A stretch of 35,752 nt of DNA, from the UHGV virus genome UHGV-0215880, one strand, 5' to 3'. Positions 911-5,778 of this stretch are shown in pieces (position 1 is the first letter of the stretch; each line of letters opens with the position of its first letter). Under the pieces are notes generated by a model. It was not told the origin of the DNA. It did not search any database and was given only the letters and a program-made list of their open reading frames with translations. This stretch comes from a virus. The position numbers and the translations under genes were made by a program.

Positions 911-2092
911 TTAAAAATTTACATAGCTACTGAAAGCATCTGTTGCTTCTTTAGTAACTTCATCAGAAACATGAGTGTAAGTATCCATAGTTATTTGTAA
1001 AGAAGAATGTCCTAAACGTTCTTGGATTATTTTAGACCTAACATTATCTGATTCGAATAATAATGTTGCGTGGGTATGCCGAAAACCATGACAACCAATA
1101 GAATGTAAGTTAGCTTTTTCTGCCAATCTTTTGGAACGTTGGTAAATGTCTTGACTTCGGAACATGGTACCATCAATTTTTGTGAAAATAAGTTGTGTTT
1201 TAACCCCACCTTTTTTCATTAAAGCCTCACGCTGTCTAAGTTTCCATTTTTTTAAGATATAAGCAGTCTTGTTATCAAAAGAAATTTTACGAATAGAATT
1301 GGGAGTTTTAGGATCGTTTATAGTCAATCCATTTGTACTGATAGCAGTAGTTTTATTTATATTAACTACCTGCTTTTTAATATCAATATCATTCCAATTC
1401 AATGCTAAAGCTTCACCAACACGTATACCAGTAAAAGAAAGTAAGCGAAAAATAGCACAGTCTAAGTCAGCATAGTATTTTAGAACTAAACTTTCTTCTT
1501 TGGCTTGATTGGCAATGCTATCAGCTGTATTTAAGAAATGTTCCAGTTCGTCTTTTGTATAGAACTTTCTTTTTGTATTCTTTTCTACTTTCTTTAGCGA
1601 ACTAGGCTTAGTTATTTTCTTAAATGGGTTTGAGTCTATTATTTCTAAACCAACAGCATAGTCACAAACACGAGAAGCGTAACTCAAAAGTACTTTTCCC
1701 ATTTCATTCTTTTTATACCATTCATTAACAGATTTTTGCACGATCTTTACTGTTAAACGCTCAAGTCTCATTTTCCCGAATGTGGGTAAAATGTGTTTTT
1801 TCATACGTCGCTCAGTAGCTATGAATGTGGATTCCCTAACTGTTTTTTTGTATTCGTCTAACCACATATAATAAACTTCTTCAAAAGTGGTTAAACGAGT
1901 ATGCTCGTTAGCTAGATTTCCATTATCAAAATCTAATTTTTTTTGATTAAGCTTGAGCTGTGCTTCTTTTTTTGTATTACAGTTTCTGATAGTGACATTA
2001 ATTTGTTTACCAGTTAAATAATCTACGCCTAAATAGGCAGTTACTTTCCAGTATTTTTGGCCTTTTTTTGTATATTGTTTAAAAGTTGCCAT
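911..2092 (-). CDS. int: Tyrosine site-specific integrase
   Basis: The C-terminus carries the R..HGFRHTHATLL...LGHSSLQITMDTYTHV catalytic signature. The N-terminus MATFKQYTKKGQKYW is typical of Firmicute phage integrases. An RBS GGAAAGGA lies upstream. Confidence 0.93.
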   Translation of the reverse strand: MATFKQYTKKGQKYWKVTAYLGVDYLTGKQINVTIRNCNTKKEAQLKLNQKKLDFDNGNLANEHTRLTTFEEVYYMWLDEYKKTVRESTFIATERRMKKHILPTFGKMRLERLTVKIVQKSVNEWYKKNEMGKVLLSYASRVCDYAVGLEIIDSNPFKKITKPSSLKKVEKNTKRKFYTKDELEHFLNTADSIANQAKEESLVLKYYADLDCAIFRLLSFTGIRVGEALALNWNDIDIKKQVVNINKTTAISTNGLTINDPKTPNSIRKISFDNKTAYILKKWKLRQREALMKKGGVKTQLIFTKIDGTMFRSQDIYQRSKRLAEKANLHSIGCHGFRHTHATLLFESDNVRSKIIQERLGHSSLQITMDTYTHVSDEVTKEATDAFSSYVNF

Positions 2093-2216: not shown

Positions 2217-2735
2217 TTATTTTAGTATTTTGATTTTATTAGTATCCAGCGCTTCAGATCTAGCTACGATTTCATCACCCGCTTTTATTTGCATAAAAGG
2301 TAATTTATTATCTTTCGTGAAAGGTGATGCGATTGCTTTTAAAACACCGATGTAGTTTTGTCTGTCAGTGGAATCTAAATTTTCCCAATCAGTAGATAAA
2401 TTTAGTTGTACGTAATTAATATTGTTATTAGATTTTGTATCTACTTCCGCACTTAAAATATACGGGTAATCTTCGTTTTTATAGTTATTAAGTTCTTCAT
2501 TTAACTTTTCTTGATTTTGTTTCTGATAGTTTTTTGCTTCAGTAACGGTGGTTTTATCATTTCTGTTATTTTGAGTTTTTTTATTTATATTTAATGCACC
2601 GGTAACCATTAAAATAAAACTAATAACTAAAAATAATAAAGCTTTTTTCTTAGGCTGTTTTTTGAAAAGCGAAATAATAAACAAAATGAGACTAACAAGT
2701 ATACCTAACAACCCGATTAAAACTAAAAATTCCAT
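2217..2735 (-). CDS. Membrane protein with two N-terminal TM helices and an Asn/Lys-rich extracellular domain. Candidate superinfection-exclusion protein (Sie2009-like position).
   Basis: Hydrophobic stretches LVLIGLLGILVSLILFIISLF and ALLFLVISFILMVTGAL. Sits between int and the ImmA/repressor pair. Hairpins flank it at 2167-2189 and 2793-2815. Confidence 0.6.
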   Translation of the reverse strand: MEFLVLIGLLGILVSLILFIISLFKKQPKKKALLFLVISFILMVTGALNINKKTQNNRNDKTTVTEAKNYQKQNQEKLNEELNNYKNEDYPYILSAEVDTKSNNNINYVQLNLSTDWENLDSTDRQNYIGVLKAIASPFTKDNKLPFMQIKAGDEIVARSEALDTNKIKILK

Positions 2736-2822: not shown

Positions 2823-3245
2823 TTACTGTGCGTAAGAATAATTCTTTTTGAAGTATGAATGACAAACATCGAAACATTCCGTTCTTAAATTACTATTGAT
2901 AGAATAAAAATCCATGAAATTATCTAATTTAAATTGTGATTCATCCGTTAGTTCATTTTCTACAAAAATGTTTAATAGAATTATAATTGCTATTTTATTA
3001 GCTTCTGTCTCAAACTTTGAATGAAAAGTAATAGAGCTATCATATAACGTTGTATATTCGTAGTGTGAAGCGATAAAATGGCCGAGCTCATGTGCTAAAT
3101 GAAAGGCTTCTGCTCTATCCTCATGTAATTTTTCGTTTAAAAAAACGATTCTTGGCTTAGGATAGTAGAATCCAGATTCTTCCATTTCCATATAAACCAA
3201 TTTTAAATTATAATCACTTAGCAATTCTTTCAGTTTTAAATACAT
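2823..3245 (-). CDS. immA: ImmA/IrrE-family zinc metallopeptidase (anti-repressor protease)
   Basis: HEXXH motif HLAHELGHFIASH. Directly downstream of the XRE repressor, as in ImmR/ImmA pairs. The track start 3257 is GTG. ATG 3245 has an SD GGAGTGG upstream. Confidence 0.8.
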   Translation of the reverse strand: MYLKLKELLSDYNLKLVYMEMEESGFYYPKPRIVFLNEKLHEDRAEAFHLAHELGHFIASHYEYTTLYDSSITFHSKFETEANKIAIIILLNIFVENELTDESQFKLDNFMDFYSINSNLRTECFDVCHSYFKKNYSYAQ

Positions 3246-3262
3246 ACCAACTACCACTCCAA

Positions 3263-3583
3263 TTACTCGTTTTCTTCCAAAGCTTTAGCAATAGCAATTG
3301 CTTTACGCATTGTCTCCTTTGAAATTTCTTTTCCATCAAATGAAAATACAGTATCATCTTCTGATAAATCTACTTTTTTTGGAGCTTCTTTGAGTTCTCT
3401 TCCAAGAAGGTAGTCTACAGATACATCAAAGTAGTCAGCTACTTTTCTTAGACCTTCTGAATTTGGAGAAACTTTTTTCCACTTGCTAAAATATCCATTT
3501 GAGTAGCCTAGAGTAATTTCTAATTGTCGAATGGACATCTTCTTCCTTTTTGCTAATTCTTTTATTATTTCATAAGTATTCAT
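3263..3583 (-). CDS. XRE-family HTH repressor (cI/ImmR-like)
   Basis: N-terminal HTH_XRE MSIRQLEITLGYSNGYFSKWKK. Divergent from the cro-like gene. AAAGG RBS upstream. Confidence 0.85.
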   Translation of the reverse strand: MNTYEIIKELAKRKKMSIRQLEITLGYSNGYFSKWKKVSPNSEGLRKVADYFDVSVDYLLGRELKEAPKKVDLSEDDTVFSFDGKEISKETMRKAIAIAKALEENE

Positions 3584-3641
3584 TGATTTGACAACCTTTC
3601 TGAATGCTTACAAAAAAAGTTTAGAAAAAACTCTATTTTAA

Positions 3642-3670
3642 TTGACAAATCAGAGTTTAAGTTCTATACT
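3642..3670 (+). promoter_or_regulatory. Candidate early rightward promoter: TTGACA (3642-3647), 17 nt, TATACT (3665-3670). Flanked by inverted repeat AAACTCT (3628-3634) / AGAGTTT (3652-3658).
   Basis: Best sigma-70 match on the plus strand in the switch region. The 7-bp perfect inverted repeat brackets the -35 and is an operator candidate. Confidence 0.5.
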
Positions 3671-3789
3671 GTATTTTGTAAACAAGTTAATCAACTAAAA
3701 AGACAACAAAAAACAATATTGATAAATGAACGCTAACCGCCAAGAAAGCTATAAATCAATGTTTCAATGTCTTATTTAATTACGTTTTG

Positions 3790-3818
3790 ATTATAGAATA
3801 AAACTCTATTCGTGTCAA
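3790..3818 (-). promoter_or_regulatory. Candidate repressor promoter on the minus strand: TTGACA (3818-3813), 17 nt, TATAAT (3795-3790). Faces the plus-strand promoter.
   Basis: Perfect consensus hexamers with 17-nt spacing on the minus strand. A third copy of AAACTCT (3801-3807) lies in its spacer. Confidence 0.5.
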
Positions 3819-3876
3819 CCAAATTTAGAAATTAGTTGATTAATTTGTTTACTAATTCAGAGAAAGGAGAAAAAGC

Positions 3877-4059
3877 ATGGCAAATATTCAAGAAACACGT
3901 CAAAAAATTTTAGACCATTTTAAATCTAACGATTGGGAAATTCCTGATGTAGCAAGTGCGTTAGGAATTACAGAACAATATCTACGAAAAATCCTAAACA
4001 ATCCAGAAAAACATTTAAAGCAAATGACCGATATTATTGCTTATTACAAAATCAGATAG
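3877..4059 (+). CDS. Cro-like small HTH regulator
   Basis: 60 aa, HTH DVASALGITEQYLRKIL, RBS AAAGGAGAAAAAGC, divergent from the repressor gene. Confidence 0.7.
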   Translation: MANIQETRQKILDHFKSNDWEIPDVASALGITEQYLRKILNNPEKHLKQMTDIIAYYKIR

Positions 4060-4071
4060 GATGTGTAAAAA

Positions 4072-4341
4072 ATGGAAGTGATTTTAACTCCAGAAAATGA
4101 AGCTTCTCTAAGGGATTTTGTACATGGAATTATTGTTGATGAAATAGAAAAAGCACGAAGAGATACCTCAATTGATAAGCGAGTTTTAAATCAAACAGAG
4201 ATTGCAAAATATTTCAATGTATCCACTACAACAATAAGGGAATGGGAGAAGCTAGGTCTTCCGCATGGATCAGTAAGTAAACAAGGGAAGTTCTACGACA
4301 AAGAAGAGTGTCGCAGATGGCTTCTATCACAAAAAAGATAA
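4072..4341 (+). CDS. Excisionase/MerR-like HTH DNA-binding protein
   Basis: HTH LNQTEIAKYFNVSTTTIREWEKLGLPH resembles Xis/HTH_17 family. It lies in the early operon, not next to int. Confidence 0.5.
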   Translation: MEVILTPENEASLRDFVHGIIVDEIEKARRDTSIDKRVLNQTEIAKYFNVSTTTIREWEKLGLPHGSVSKQGKFYDKEECRRWLLSQKR

Positions 4342-4374: not shown

Positions 4375-4656
4375 ATGAGGGATGATGAAATTAGTTTAAG
4401 GGAATTAATTAATATTAGAAATAATTTTAGAAATTTTAAATGGGATGAGAGAATCGGAATTCCTAAACCAGAAGGATTTGACGAACTACCTATGTTTTCT
4501 GAAGGTTTTTTCTATAAAAGAAATAAGTATGATGAGATTCGATATGCAACTATGCTTGCAGAGAATTTAGTAGAAAAAAGGAAGACGTTGTTAATTGAAC
4601 AACGCCTTGAAGAAATTGATGATATCAGACTTATGGGTAATGATACTTATGAATAA
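4375..4656 (+). CDS. Hypothetical protein
   Basis: Strong RBS AGGGAGGTAGAAC before the ATG. Confidence 0.65.
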   Translation: MRDDEISLRELINIRNNFRNFKWDERIGIPKPEGFDELPMFSEGFFYKRNKYDEIRYATMLAENLVEKRKTLLIEQRLEEIDDIRLMGNDTYE

Positions 4657-5004
4657 ATTTGTGACTGCAATAAAAGTAGTTAGTAGATAAGGGACCCAAA
4701 ATAAAAATTTTTTATTTTGATGTTCTTCTATAAGTTTATTGGACTTGTTAGTTGTGTAATATCTGTATTTTTCTGTCGAATAAAAAGGACTAGAACATTC
4801 AGTAAAATAATTGCCGCTTTCATCTTTACCAATAAGAAACTGGCTATTTATATATACCATCACAAATAGTGAAATGCTTGAGTTTGGAAACTTTTTACGT
4901 AATTCACCTTCAGTAGCTCCTTTTTTTCGAAAATAATTTGTTTTTCTATAAATATATTTAAATATTTTAAGAGTGTTTTTATCTATATCTTCATGAGTAT
5001 CCAC
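4591..5004 (-). CDS. Reverse-oriented moron: 137-aa protein with an N-terminal wHTH-like region and a C-terminal TM helix
   Basis: A 137-codon ORF in AT-rich DNA. GTG start with RBS GAGGTGA. It has its own extended -10 promoter. C-terminal hydrophobic stretch FLFWVPYLLTTFIAVTNLFISII. Confidence 0.5.
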   Translation of the reverse strand: MDTHEDIDKNTLKIFKYIYRKTNYFRKKGATEGELRKKFPNSSISLFVMVYINSQFLIGKDESGNYFTECSSPFYSTEKYRYYTTNKSNKLIEEHQNKKFLFWVPYLLTTFIAVTNLFISIITHKSDIINFFKALFN

Positions 5005-5029
5005 TATTATTCACCTCGCTTTCAAAATA

Positions 5030-5038
5030 ATTATACCA
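5030..5038 (-). promoter_or_regulatory. Extended -10 element TGGTATAAT on the minus strand, driving the 4591-5004 gene
   Basis: The reverse complement of 5030-5038 is TGGTATAAT, about 25 nt upstream of the GTG start and its RBS. Confidence 0.45.
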
Positions 5039-5055
5039 GAAAGGAAATAATCAAA

Positions 5056-5778
5056 ATGACAAATTTAGTAATTATGAAAGACCACCAAGCAGTAACAAGT
5101 AGTTTACAAGTTGCTGAAGTTTTTGGCAAAGAACACAAAGTTGTTCTAAAAGCCATTGATGAATTAAAAGAGGGGGTGGCACAAAATTATGCCGACCTAT
5201 TTTACGAAGATACCTACATTCATCCACAAAACAAACAATCTTATCGCCAAGTTATTATGAATCGCGACGGCTTCACTTTGTTAGCAATGGGGTTCACTGG
5301 TCAAAAGGCATTGCAGTTCAAACTGAAATATATTGAGGCTTTTAACCAAATGGAAGAATTGCTTAAAACTCAATCAAACTTACCGATGAATAACACAGAA
5401 TTATTATTAGAAGCTGCGCTAAAGCATGAACGTGGATTGACTCTTGTAAATCAACGTTTAGATAAGCTAGAAACAGAAACTACAATTAATAGAAGCCAAC
5501 AACGAAAGATACAAGGGCTAGTTTCATCAACTGTTATCAAAGTATTAGGTGGCAAAAAAACATTGGCTTATCAGGATTCAAGTATTAAGCAATCAGCCTT
5601 TAGTAATTGCTATAAACAATTGAAAGCATTATTCGATGTAGCCTCTTATGTAGATATTCCAAAAGTTCGATATGAAGAAGCATTAGCTCTAATTCCTAAA
5701 TGGAAGCCTGAATTGGAATTACAAGCAAGAATTGATATGGCTAATGGGAATGGAGATATGTTTAAAAAAATAGGCTAG
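5056..5778 (+). CDS. Rha-family phage regulatory protein / antirepressor
   Basis: N-terminus MTNLVIMKDHQAVTSSLQVAEVFGKEHKVVLKAIDEL matches the Phage_pRha pattern. RBS AAAGGAAA 8 nt upstream. The track ORF is extended upstream to 4993. Confidence 0.8.
   Translation: MTNLVIMKDHQAVTSSLQVAEVFGKEHKVVLKAIDELKEGVAQNYADLFYEDTYIHPQNKQSYRQVIMNRDGFTLLAMGFTGQKALQFKLKYIEAFNQMEELLKTQSNLPMNNTELLLEAALKHERGLTLVNQRLDKLETETTINRSQQRKIQGLVSSTVIKVLGGKKTLAYQDSSIKQSAFSNCYKQLKALFDVASYVDIPKVRYEEALALIPKWKPELELQARIDMANGNGDMFKKIG

Follow-up and report, generated by a model that had tools for sequence, protein, structure and literature searches.

A probable convergent-promoter lysis/lysogeny switch with matching repressor sites and structured leaders in an Enterococcus prophage

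We analyzed the 293-bp gap (positions 3584-3876) that separates the repressor gene from the early lytic genes of the virus genome UHGV-0215880. The whole stretch of 35,752 nt, called the window in the following, is the left end of an Enterococcus prophage. Two strong promoters of this gap point toward each other. Since this convergent layout, combined with matching repressor sites and structured overlapping leaders, is found again in more than a hundred related prophages, we take it to be a genuine type of lysis/lysogeny switch that has hardly been studied. As an explanation of the whole we propose that the region is a self-contained lysis/lysogeny cassette on two convergent sigma-A promoters, a proposal to which we give a probability of roughly two in three. 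Its evidenced part comprises the elements themselves, their conservation, co-variation, RNA-level selection on a long helix of the lytic leader (P1) and a start site mapped at the homologous repressor promoter. The promoter elements are as follows.

3642-3670, plus strand: P(+), the early (lytic) promoter, TTGACA-17-TATACT, with the -35 at 3642-3647 and the -10 (TATACT) at 3665-3670
3818-3790, minus strand: P(-), the repressor (lysogenic) promoter, TTGACA-17-TATAAT, with the -35 at 3818-3813 and the -10 (TATAAT) at 3795-3790
3677/3678, plus strand: predicted transcription start of P(+), 7-8 nt past the -10, where arm 1 of the conserved helix begins in all clades
3783, minus strand: transcription start of P(-), G3783, the 7th nt past the -10, by homology to start site 1959310 of E. 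faecalis V583
3611-3629, plus strand: A-rich tract upstream of the P(+) -35, resembling an UP element by its sequence and conserved in the alignment; presumed function

The strict pattern TTGACA-N17-TATAMT has exactly two sites on both strands of the window, and both lie in the gap. Chance expectation is 0.02 sites, and none of 100 shuffled sequences shows two or more. The first-pass annotation, which was made from the letters alone, had placed two near-consensus promoters at these very positions, and they are indeed the only strict sites. It had also put the two starts about 105 bp apart, with overlapping transcripts and leaders of roughly 200 nt. This agrees with our values, i.e., a predicted overlap of 106 nt, fully complementary, and leaders of 199-200 nt for P(+) (3678-3876) and 200 nt for P(-) (3783-3584), where the P(+) start is a prediction from its promoter sequence. 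The -10 and -35 of P(-) fall at +113 to +141 of the lytic transcript. A terminator scan of the intergenic region finds no intrinsic terminator in either leader, and Rfam yields no match with an E-value below 4 in the window's positions 3400-4100. A small open reading frame (ORF) as the content of the gap was rejected, given that its central part holds no frame of at least 20 aa and that a 17-codon frame (3728-3781) shifts between groups. Beside both promoters we observe a direct repeat, TTTAGAA, located at 3620-3626 upstream of the P(+) -35 and at 3824-3830 next to the P(-) -35. Since several immunity groups share this repeat, it is not immunity-specific.

To assess conservation, two samples were used. 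The protein-anchored sample comes from a search of IMG/VR with the repressor and comprises 80 loci, among which 47 different intergenic regions occur. For the wider sample, we turned the most conserved block into a DNA search pattern; both samples together contain 117 distinct regions that form 58 clusters. The pattern fixes an invariant 14-mer (see below) and the -35 of P(-), such that in the wider sample only P(+), the -10 of P(-) and the repeats are independent checks. Across the 117 regions, the gap length (about 290-300 bp), the positions of both promoters and the overlap of the transcripts are kept, and promoter positions stay in place while the sequence between and around them changes. 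The annotated reading of the promoters as convergent rather than back-to-back thus holds throughout these distinct relatives. At the position equivalent to P(+), 100/117 regions score at least 10/12 and 115/117 at least 9/12. The predicted overlap has a median of 109 nt (range 83-121). Members include the E. faecalis phages phiFL1A to phiFL3B and the V583 prophage pp4; a scan of genomes extended the family to several Enterococcus species, to Vagococcus, Listeria fleischmannii and Lapidilactobacillus, and to one genome each from Streptococcaceae and Coprobacillus. Lactobacillaceae prophages are also among the bearers of the convergent layout. One IMG/VR contig (L036/L115) has a 33-bp deletion by which the lytic promoter loses its -35 together with the operator half-site upstream; the cassette is otherwise intact. 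This prophage may be unable to be induced.

A mapped start site is available for the repressor promoter of a homologue. For prophage pp4 of E. faecalis V583, differential RNA sequencing (dRNA-seq) gives the Cro/CI-type repressor EF2040 one primary start, at 1959310, with a 5' untranslated region of 200 nt, flagged as antisense to EF2039 (Michaux et al. 2020, PMC7724050, Suppl. Table 1). No nearer start is listed for EF2040 (Suppl. Tables 1 and 3), and the tables of that study hold neither a small RNA nor a terminator at the pp4 repressor locus. The 51 nt upstream of this start (TTGACT-17-TACAAT) are identical at 51/51 positions to those of four of our loci (L107, L138, L187, L195). That is, the mapped start sits at a promoter of the P(-) type, at the 7th base past its -10, and the GTG of the repressor homologous to that of the window lies exactly 200 nt downstream. 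Applying the same rule to the window gives G3783 and therefore again a 200-nt leader. Facing promoters with overlapping transcripts are thus found with the minus start mapped in a homologue and the plus start predicted. Starts within 60 bp of the start codons, which the first-pass annotation had itself named as evidence against its proposal, are not what is seen on the repressor side, where the homologous pp4 start is 200 nt upstream.

Further V583 prophages can be compared. The entry for EF2852 of pp6 gives a 209-nt leader, which is also flagged as antisense, and EF2141/EF2142 of pp5 use classical back-to-back promoters with leaders of 14 and 35 nt (PMC7724050). As an observation on another switch family, unrelated to that of the window, the cro-like EF0307 of pp1 is flanked by two starts, one on the plus strand 42 nt ahead of the gene and one on the minus strand directly beyond its stop codon (292433 and 292693 in the table of PMC7724050). 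These promoters, which both carry CTTGCGTAA...TTAC, are convergent, 260 nt apart, and span the whole cro-like gene.

These data bear on two other readings of the promoters. In a classical back-to-back switch, the true promoters would be weak and proximal to their genes, and the consensus hexamers would be due to chance or vestigial. AT-rich DNA does offer promoter-like sequences at a loose threshold (14 matches vs. 12.3 expected in 2.5 kb), and the short-leader divergent promoters of pp5 are a precedent. This is opposed by the two strict sites where 0.02 are expected, by their positions kept in the 117 relatives, by the mapped start at the homologous distal promoter and by the lack of a conserved -10 close to either gene, such that we consider a back-to-back arrangement hardly credible. 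The alternative divergent promoters were rejected: the -10 of a minus-strand TTTACA-17-TAAACT (3682-3654, 9/12, overlapping P(+)) is not conserved, and neither are those of candidates near the cro-like gene in the alignment.

Alternatively, the main product of P(-) might be a short antisense RNA with a regulatory role that stops ahead of the repressor gene; the repressor would then be made from another promoter or only by regulated read-through. Here, the operator repeat forms a hairpin in the minus RNA that is followed by UUUUUUCUAAACUUUUUUU, the weak minus-strand promoter that overlaps P(+) could serve the gene, and dRNA-seq yields 5' ends only. On the other hand, EF2040 of pp4 has no listed start other than the distal one, which the study ranks as primary, and repressor expression is indispensable in a lysogen. 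Neither the terminator scan of the intergenic region nor the published tables of small RNAs and terminators at the pp4 locus (PMC7724050) yield an entry, and the weak proximal promoter has a -10 that differs from group to group and is thus not conserved. We thus rate a mere antisense role of P(-) as improbable.

We next turn to the sequences that the repressor would recognize.

3627-3637, plus strand: operator half-site 1, AAAACTCTATT (AAACTCT at 3628-3634), upstream of the P(+) -35
3652-3658, plus strand: operator half-site 2, AGAGTTT (inverted), in the P(+) spacer at -26 to -20
3800-3810, plus strand: operator half-site 3, AAAACTCTATT (AAACTCT at 3801-3807), in the P(-) spacer at -24 to -18 of the minus strand

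AAAACTCTATT is thus an exact 11-nt direct repeat (3627-3637 and 3800-3810), AAACTCTA has no further copy elsewhere in the window, and the spacer copies at P(+) and P(-) share their orientation relative to their own promoter. The annotated arrangement, i.e., AAACTCT/AGAGTTT bracketing the P(+) -35 and a third copy in the P(-) spacer, is found with coordinates shifted by 1 nt. When immunity groups are compared, the sequences on either side of the P(+) -35 differ in step with the one within the P(-) spacer, and both differ in step with residues 28-37 of the repressor, i.e., its recognition helix:

Recognition helix SNGYFSKWK: operator AAACTCT/AGAGTTT
Recognition helix SNGYLAKWK: operator CTGAGTAAT
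Recognition helix SNGYLGSWK: operator ATTAATAAT

Other groups show further motifs (TCTACAAAG, GTATAC, TTGTTAAAAT), and repressors that are only about 80% identical overall keep a common motif if they have a common helix. Since the motif switches together with the recognition helix across immunity groups, there is good indirect evidence, from sequence co-variation, that AAACTCT is the repressor operator, as the first-pass annotation had suggested; the repressor would accordingly be expected to bind at these sites.

The first-pass annotation had overlooked that the leaders are structured. The lytic leader contains a long inverted repeat whose arms can pair as helix P1; a possible counterpart in the repressor leader is given as well.

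3675-3698, plus strand: P1 arm 1, at the 5' end of the lytic leader RNA (inverted repeat, 92% complementary; RNAalifold)
3832-3855, plus strand: P1 arm 2, whose end is about 8 nt upstream of the first gene's Shine-Dalgarno sequence
3605-3615, minus strand: UUUUGUAAGCA, 3' arm of a possible repressor-leader helix, pairing with the complement of 3674-3684 (inverted repeat, predicted fold)

The 24-bp P1 links the predicted +1 of P(+) to the bases just ahead of the ribosome-binding site of the first gene. Practically every clade has the repeat although its sequence differs (GTAAACAAGTT..., GTAAGCTAATTT..., GTAAGTTAATTTGATAG..., GTAAGATAAATAG...), and arm 1 always begins 4-7 nt past the P(+) -10. 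Chance matches of our search pattern in unrelated bacteria lack it. RNAalifold reports 12 P1 pairs, 10 of them with compensatory changes on both sides, and 93.6% of the P1 cells are paired compared to 76.8% in shuffles and 29-46% in slid controls. Among the transition mismatches of the P1 core, 74 cells (54 contexts) are of the G·U type and 10 of the A·C type (p about 2e-8, without phylogenetic correction). Selection on a DNA site would give equal numbers of both types; we therefore conclude that P1 is selected as plus-strand RNA, which in turn indirectly supports P(+) as the origin of the lytic leader RNA. The arms track neither the operator type, the repressor helix nor the first downstream gene. 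Most likely, P1 protects or processes the lytic mRNA, e.g., as a 5' stabilizer or as an RNase III site for trimming the antisense-sensitive leader; with 20-27 bp, it is a plausible RNase III substrate. As to the repressor leader, a P1-like clamp (3605-3615/3674-3684) is considered weak; it occurs in some clades only, with a mean score of 7.9 vs. 6.6 in shuffles. A compensating variant of this helix is seen, and it is conserved only in some clades.

The same 24-bp inverted repeat (3675-3698/3832-3855) could be read as a pair of DNA sites for looping or for a second regulatory protein. Its arms are 157 bp apart from centre to centre, i.e., near 15 helical turns, each arm is itself palindromic in some clades (e.g., AGCTAATTTATTAGCT), and compensatory changes alone cannot separate DNA sites from RNA pairing. 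The strong bias of the mismatches toward G·U on the plus strand (74 vs. 10) is not expected from DNA recognition, however; the arms vary independently of repressor helix, operator type and first downstream gene, and arm 1 always starts at the predicted +1 of P(+). We thus discarded operator or looping sites on the grounds of the G·U bias and the missing co-variation with any protein, and consider a DNA-level role of the repeat very improbable.

Between the P1 arms lies the zone that is transcribed from both sides. Its elements are

3697-3776, plus strand: central long hairpin (predicted folds of both strands)
3735-3749, plus strand: GC-rich apical motif AACCGCCAAGAAAGC, in the apical loop of the predicted fold within an otherwise AU-rich RNA
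3771-3784, minus strand: invariant 14-mer CTTATTTAAYTAYG, complementary to the first nucleotides of the repressor mRNA

The base helix P2 of the hairpin pairs AAAAAGACA (3697-3705) with TGTCTTATT (3768-3776) and contains AAGACA/UGUCUU. Covariation within the central hairpin is seen for P2 only, where the pair adjoining AAG/CUU varies between A-U, C-G and U·G across clades. Both leaders of the window fold better than shuffles (z-scores of -3.3 and -3.2), and single-sequence folds predict a central hairpin with a GC-rich apex in 50/56 representatives. A related motif, GGTCGCCAAAC, is found exactly in plus orientation in 5 clusters and in minus orientation in 9. At the equivalent position, loci L086, L092, L107 and others also have the GC-rich tip motif with an orientation that varies by clade. 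A motif in either orientation fits an element needed in both complementary RNAs, e.g., for a loop-loop contact that starts antisense pairing, and a kissing loop at the GC-rich tip is an idea suggested by the predicted folds. What can be stated on cis-antisense RNA is that the convergent promoters would give complementary transcripts with the predicted 106-nt overlap, one 5' end of which is mapped in a homologue.

The 14-mer is the most conserved block of the intergenic region and invariant in all 47 protein-anchored regions. The mapped V583 pp4 start lies at its edge, such that the mapped 5' end of the repressor mRNA (AUAGUUAAAUAAG) corresponds to the 14-mer and forms the foot of the central hairpin. 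The 14-mer as a protein site repeated elsewhere in the phage was rejected, as there is only one exact copy in the window. For the switch region of phiFL1A, the only Rfam match up to an E-value of 1 is a microRNA model inside the repressor gene, which is far below threshold (E-value 0.37; 20 bits vs. a gathering score of 79).

The first gene behind the cassette was labeled cro in the first-pass annotation. This label is doubtful, since a cro-like allele can stay the same across operator types. Relatives have a cro-like helix-turn-helix (HTH) gene, a Bro/antirepressor-like gene or small ORFs at this place. One cro-like allele (MTDIAEITQRDREK...) is 100% identical behind four operator types (loci L006, L016, L018, L058), at 0.3-2.8 kb from the repressor start. 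Because of this identity, the protein is not an immunity-specific Cro that competes for the operators; that is, the lambda-type situation of a Cro acting on the repressor's operators is absent. Antirepressor-like or small ORFs are often inserted between the leader and the cro-like allele. The boundary of the cassette module appears to be at P1 arm 2. Without an immunity-specific Cro, a protein-free shut-off of P(-) by interference or antisense RNA becomes more attractive.

This also matters for a reading in which promoters and operators are real and control is exerted by repressor occupancy alone, with minor contributions of interference and antisense RNA and with leader structures that serve mRNA stability or translation only. 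As the operator motif is present in both spacers, the repressor alone could set both promoters. P1 leaves the ribosome-binding site uncovered and resembles a 5' stabilizer. Control by occupancy alone makes it hard to explain the conserved overlap of 106-120 nt, the symmetric 200-nt leaders and the GC motif in either orientation without a coupling of the transcripts, and it lacks an immunity-specific Cro to shut off the repressor promoter. Moreover, the analogous systems of coliphage 186 and plasmid pCF10 do use interference and antisense RNA. Overall, we regard control by occupancy alone as unlikely.

Our proposal of a self-contained convergent cassette would work as follows. P(-) would produce the repressor-ImmA mRNA from G3783, with the 200-nt leader running leftwards across P(+), and P(+) would produce the early lytic mRNA from about 3677/3678, with its leader running rightwards across P(-). 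The XRE-type repressor would recognize AAACTCT/AGAGTTT. In a lysogen, its binding to the two inverted half-sites around the P(+) -35 would keep the lytic promoter off, and the half-site in the P(-) spacer would damp P(-), i.e., negative autoregulation. With P(+) shut, head-on interference on P(-) would be gone, which would leave P(-) unopposed and stabilize lysogeny. Upon induction, ImmA would cleave the repressor and P(+) would fire through P(-). The overlapping 106-nt leaders would then pair, probably starting from the GC-rich tip of the central hairpin that is present in both RNAs, and repressor synthesis would collapse after interference and antisense pairing. P1 would provide the lytic mRNA with a base-paired 5' end. 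The P(+) start, repressor binding, transcriptional interference, antisense pairing, the role of P1 and all dynamic steps are what we infer.

Several points weigh against this mechanism. For the switch family, binding, interference and RNA processing are so far read from sequence. Both promoters are near consensus, so the winner of a head-on conflict is not evident; in coliphage 186, by comparison, the lytic promoter is much the stronger of the two. In the V583 lysogen dRNA-seq tables, the lytic promoter of pp4 that faces the repressor promoter has no start, and P(+) thus gains no positive support from them, although a missing start is expected in lysogen data if the lytic promoter is repressed. 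As dRNA-seq gives 5' ends only, it reports where the P(-) RNA starts and not whether it reaches into the repressor gene. Within the minus RNA, the hairpin formed by the operator repeat and the subsequent U-rich run UUUUUUCUAAACUUUUUUU could attenuate transcription. The P(+) half-sites are everted and about 24 bp apart from centre to centre, which is odd for a simple HTH dimer, and the half-site geometry differs between P(+) and P(-). Finally, the G·U statistic is uncorrected for shared ancestry, and the 14-mer and the P(-) -35 are conserved by construction in most of the wider sample, because the DNA pattern fixes both.

The genes around the switch are the following.

911-2092, minus strand: tyrosine integrase
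2217-2735, minus strand: membrane ORF
2823-3257, minus strand: ImmA-like M78 metalloprotease gene with HELGH (Pfam Peptidase_M78, E-value 6e-10; PHROG 87 metallo-protease, E-value 1e-25); putative anti-repressor by sequence
3263-3583, minus strand: XRE/CI-type HTH repressor gene, ImmR-like, 106 aa (PHROG 8, E-value 5e-22)
3595-3601, minus strand: Shine-Dalgarno sequence of the repressor gene, AGAAAGG (read off the sequence)
3863-3869, plus strand: Shine-Dalgarno sequence of the first lytic gene, AAAGGAG (read off the sequence)
3877-4059, plus strand: first early gene, a 60-aa HTH protein of the type usually labeled cro-like (PHROG 1337 DNA-binding protein)
4072-4341, plus strand: excisionase-like MerR-type HTH protein (PHROG 66)
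4993-5778, plus strand: Rha/ORF6C antirepressor

Matches of the repressor to the Pfam families HTH_26, HTH_19 and HTH_3 are weak and under the curated cut-offs; its nearest solved relative is the HTH domain of P22 C2 (E-value 2.5e-4). The exact repressor protein is present in many bacterial chromosomes. Its gene is directly followed by the co-oriented M78/COG2856 HExxH gene, i.e., the gene order of an ImmR/ImmA pair. The first-pass annotation had called a convergent switch unusual next to such a pair. For this switch family, that is wrong: an ImmA-like HExxH ORF follows the repressor in 47/51 family representatives, which makes ImmR/ImmA and the convergent layout a regular combination here, and convergent promoters next to such a pair had already been predicted in Clostridium (PMC11318856).

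Other observations in the window concern its flanks. A 137-aa ORF with no family match (4591-5004, minus strand) is reversed within the early lytic operon in a moron-like arrangement, and a terminator-like hairpin (4582-4608) belongs to it. On the plus strand, a strong terminator-like hairpin (2797-2820) separates two minus-strand genes, the membrane ORF and the ImmA-like gene.

Among known systems, the first-pass annotation had likened the region to the convergent switch of 186 and P2. As an analogy of layout this stands; as homology it does not. Both 186 (pR/pL) and P2 (Pe/Pc) have facing lytic and lysogenic promoters between divergent genes with overlapping transcripts. In both, the repressor acts at the lytic promoter, so by analogy repression should relieve interference on the repressor's own promoter, and an excisionase-type HTH gene is located early in the lytic operon (4072-4341 in the window). 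The proteins differ, i.e., 186 employs a CI wheel with Tum and the window a 106-aa XRE/P22-C2-like HTH protein with an ImmA protease. Since the repressor is of the XRE/HTH_3 type with P22 C2 as nearest solved relative, we take the resemblance as analogy and not as descent. The transcript overlap is 62 nt in 186 compared to 106 nt in the window, which is also unlike 186/P2 in its 200-nt leaders with conserved RNA structure, in the operator inside the lysogenic promoter and in having both promoters near consensus.

The layout resembles plasmid pCF10 prgQ/prgX even more. This system (as well as pAD1 iad/traA) comes from the same host genus, has convergent promoters and transcribes its regulator gene from a distal promoter inside the leader of the opposing operon. 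The 5' overlap in prgQ/prgX of this E. faecalis plasmid is 223 nt, and interference, antisense RNA and RNase III take part. It differs in being a conjugation switch whose PrgX is a peptide-sensing RRNPP regulator, with no ImmA. We detected no sequence similarity to a pCF10-type system, and Rfam gives no match to pCF10-type RNAs at positions 3400-4100 of the window. By analogy of layout, the switch is thus similar to both and by descent a member of neither.

In terms of genes, the closest comparison is ICEBs1 ImmR/ImmA of Bacillus subtilis and corresponding phage pairs, where an XRE repressor is likewise followed by a co-oriented M78/COG2856 HExxH gene. By this analogy, induction by repressor cleavage is expected. 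The ICEBs1 promoters PimmR and Pxis are described as divergent (PMC11318856), whereas those of the window are convergent with long overlapping leaders. For the prophages phi5 and phi12 of Clostridium clostridioforme LM41, software predicted convergent promoters between an ImmR-like and the next gene, and the authors invoked 186-like interference (PMC11318856). That report stays at the level of prediction and offers neither an analysis of conservation nor a definition of operators, start-site data or RNA structure. Lambda-type CI/Cro switches (e.g., V583 pp5) share with the window an HTH repressor and early genes that diverge around a common control region; they differ by back-to-back promoters, short leaders and a Cro that competes for the repressor's operators. 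Our literature searches retrieved no description of the switch cassette, its operators or its leader RNA apart from the Clostridium prediction.

A wider generalization is tentative, and we would not yet bet on it: a portable cassette of about 300 bp in Bacilli might decide largely by RNA and transcription geometry, with mirror-image 200-nt leaders, an orientation-independent kissing hairpin and a processed or protected P1 that together replace the Cro arm, such that only the half-sites and the recognition helix would be swapped for a new immunity.

Lysogeny control in enterococcal and listerial prophages is almost uncharacterized, although such prophages mobilize traits of virulence and resistance and could be candidates for phage therapy with engineered phages. 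The switch cassette adds a conserved leader RNA outside Rfam. If our proposal is true, it would provide one testable model for a large family of ImmR/ImmA prophages and would extend convergent-promoter switching, as worked out in 186/P2 and pCF10, to Gram-positive phages. New immunity types would arise by swapping the recognition helix and a few half-sites within a constant frame of RNA and promoters, and the cassettes would offer compact bistable parts for Gram-positive synthetic biology.

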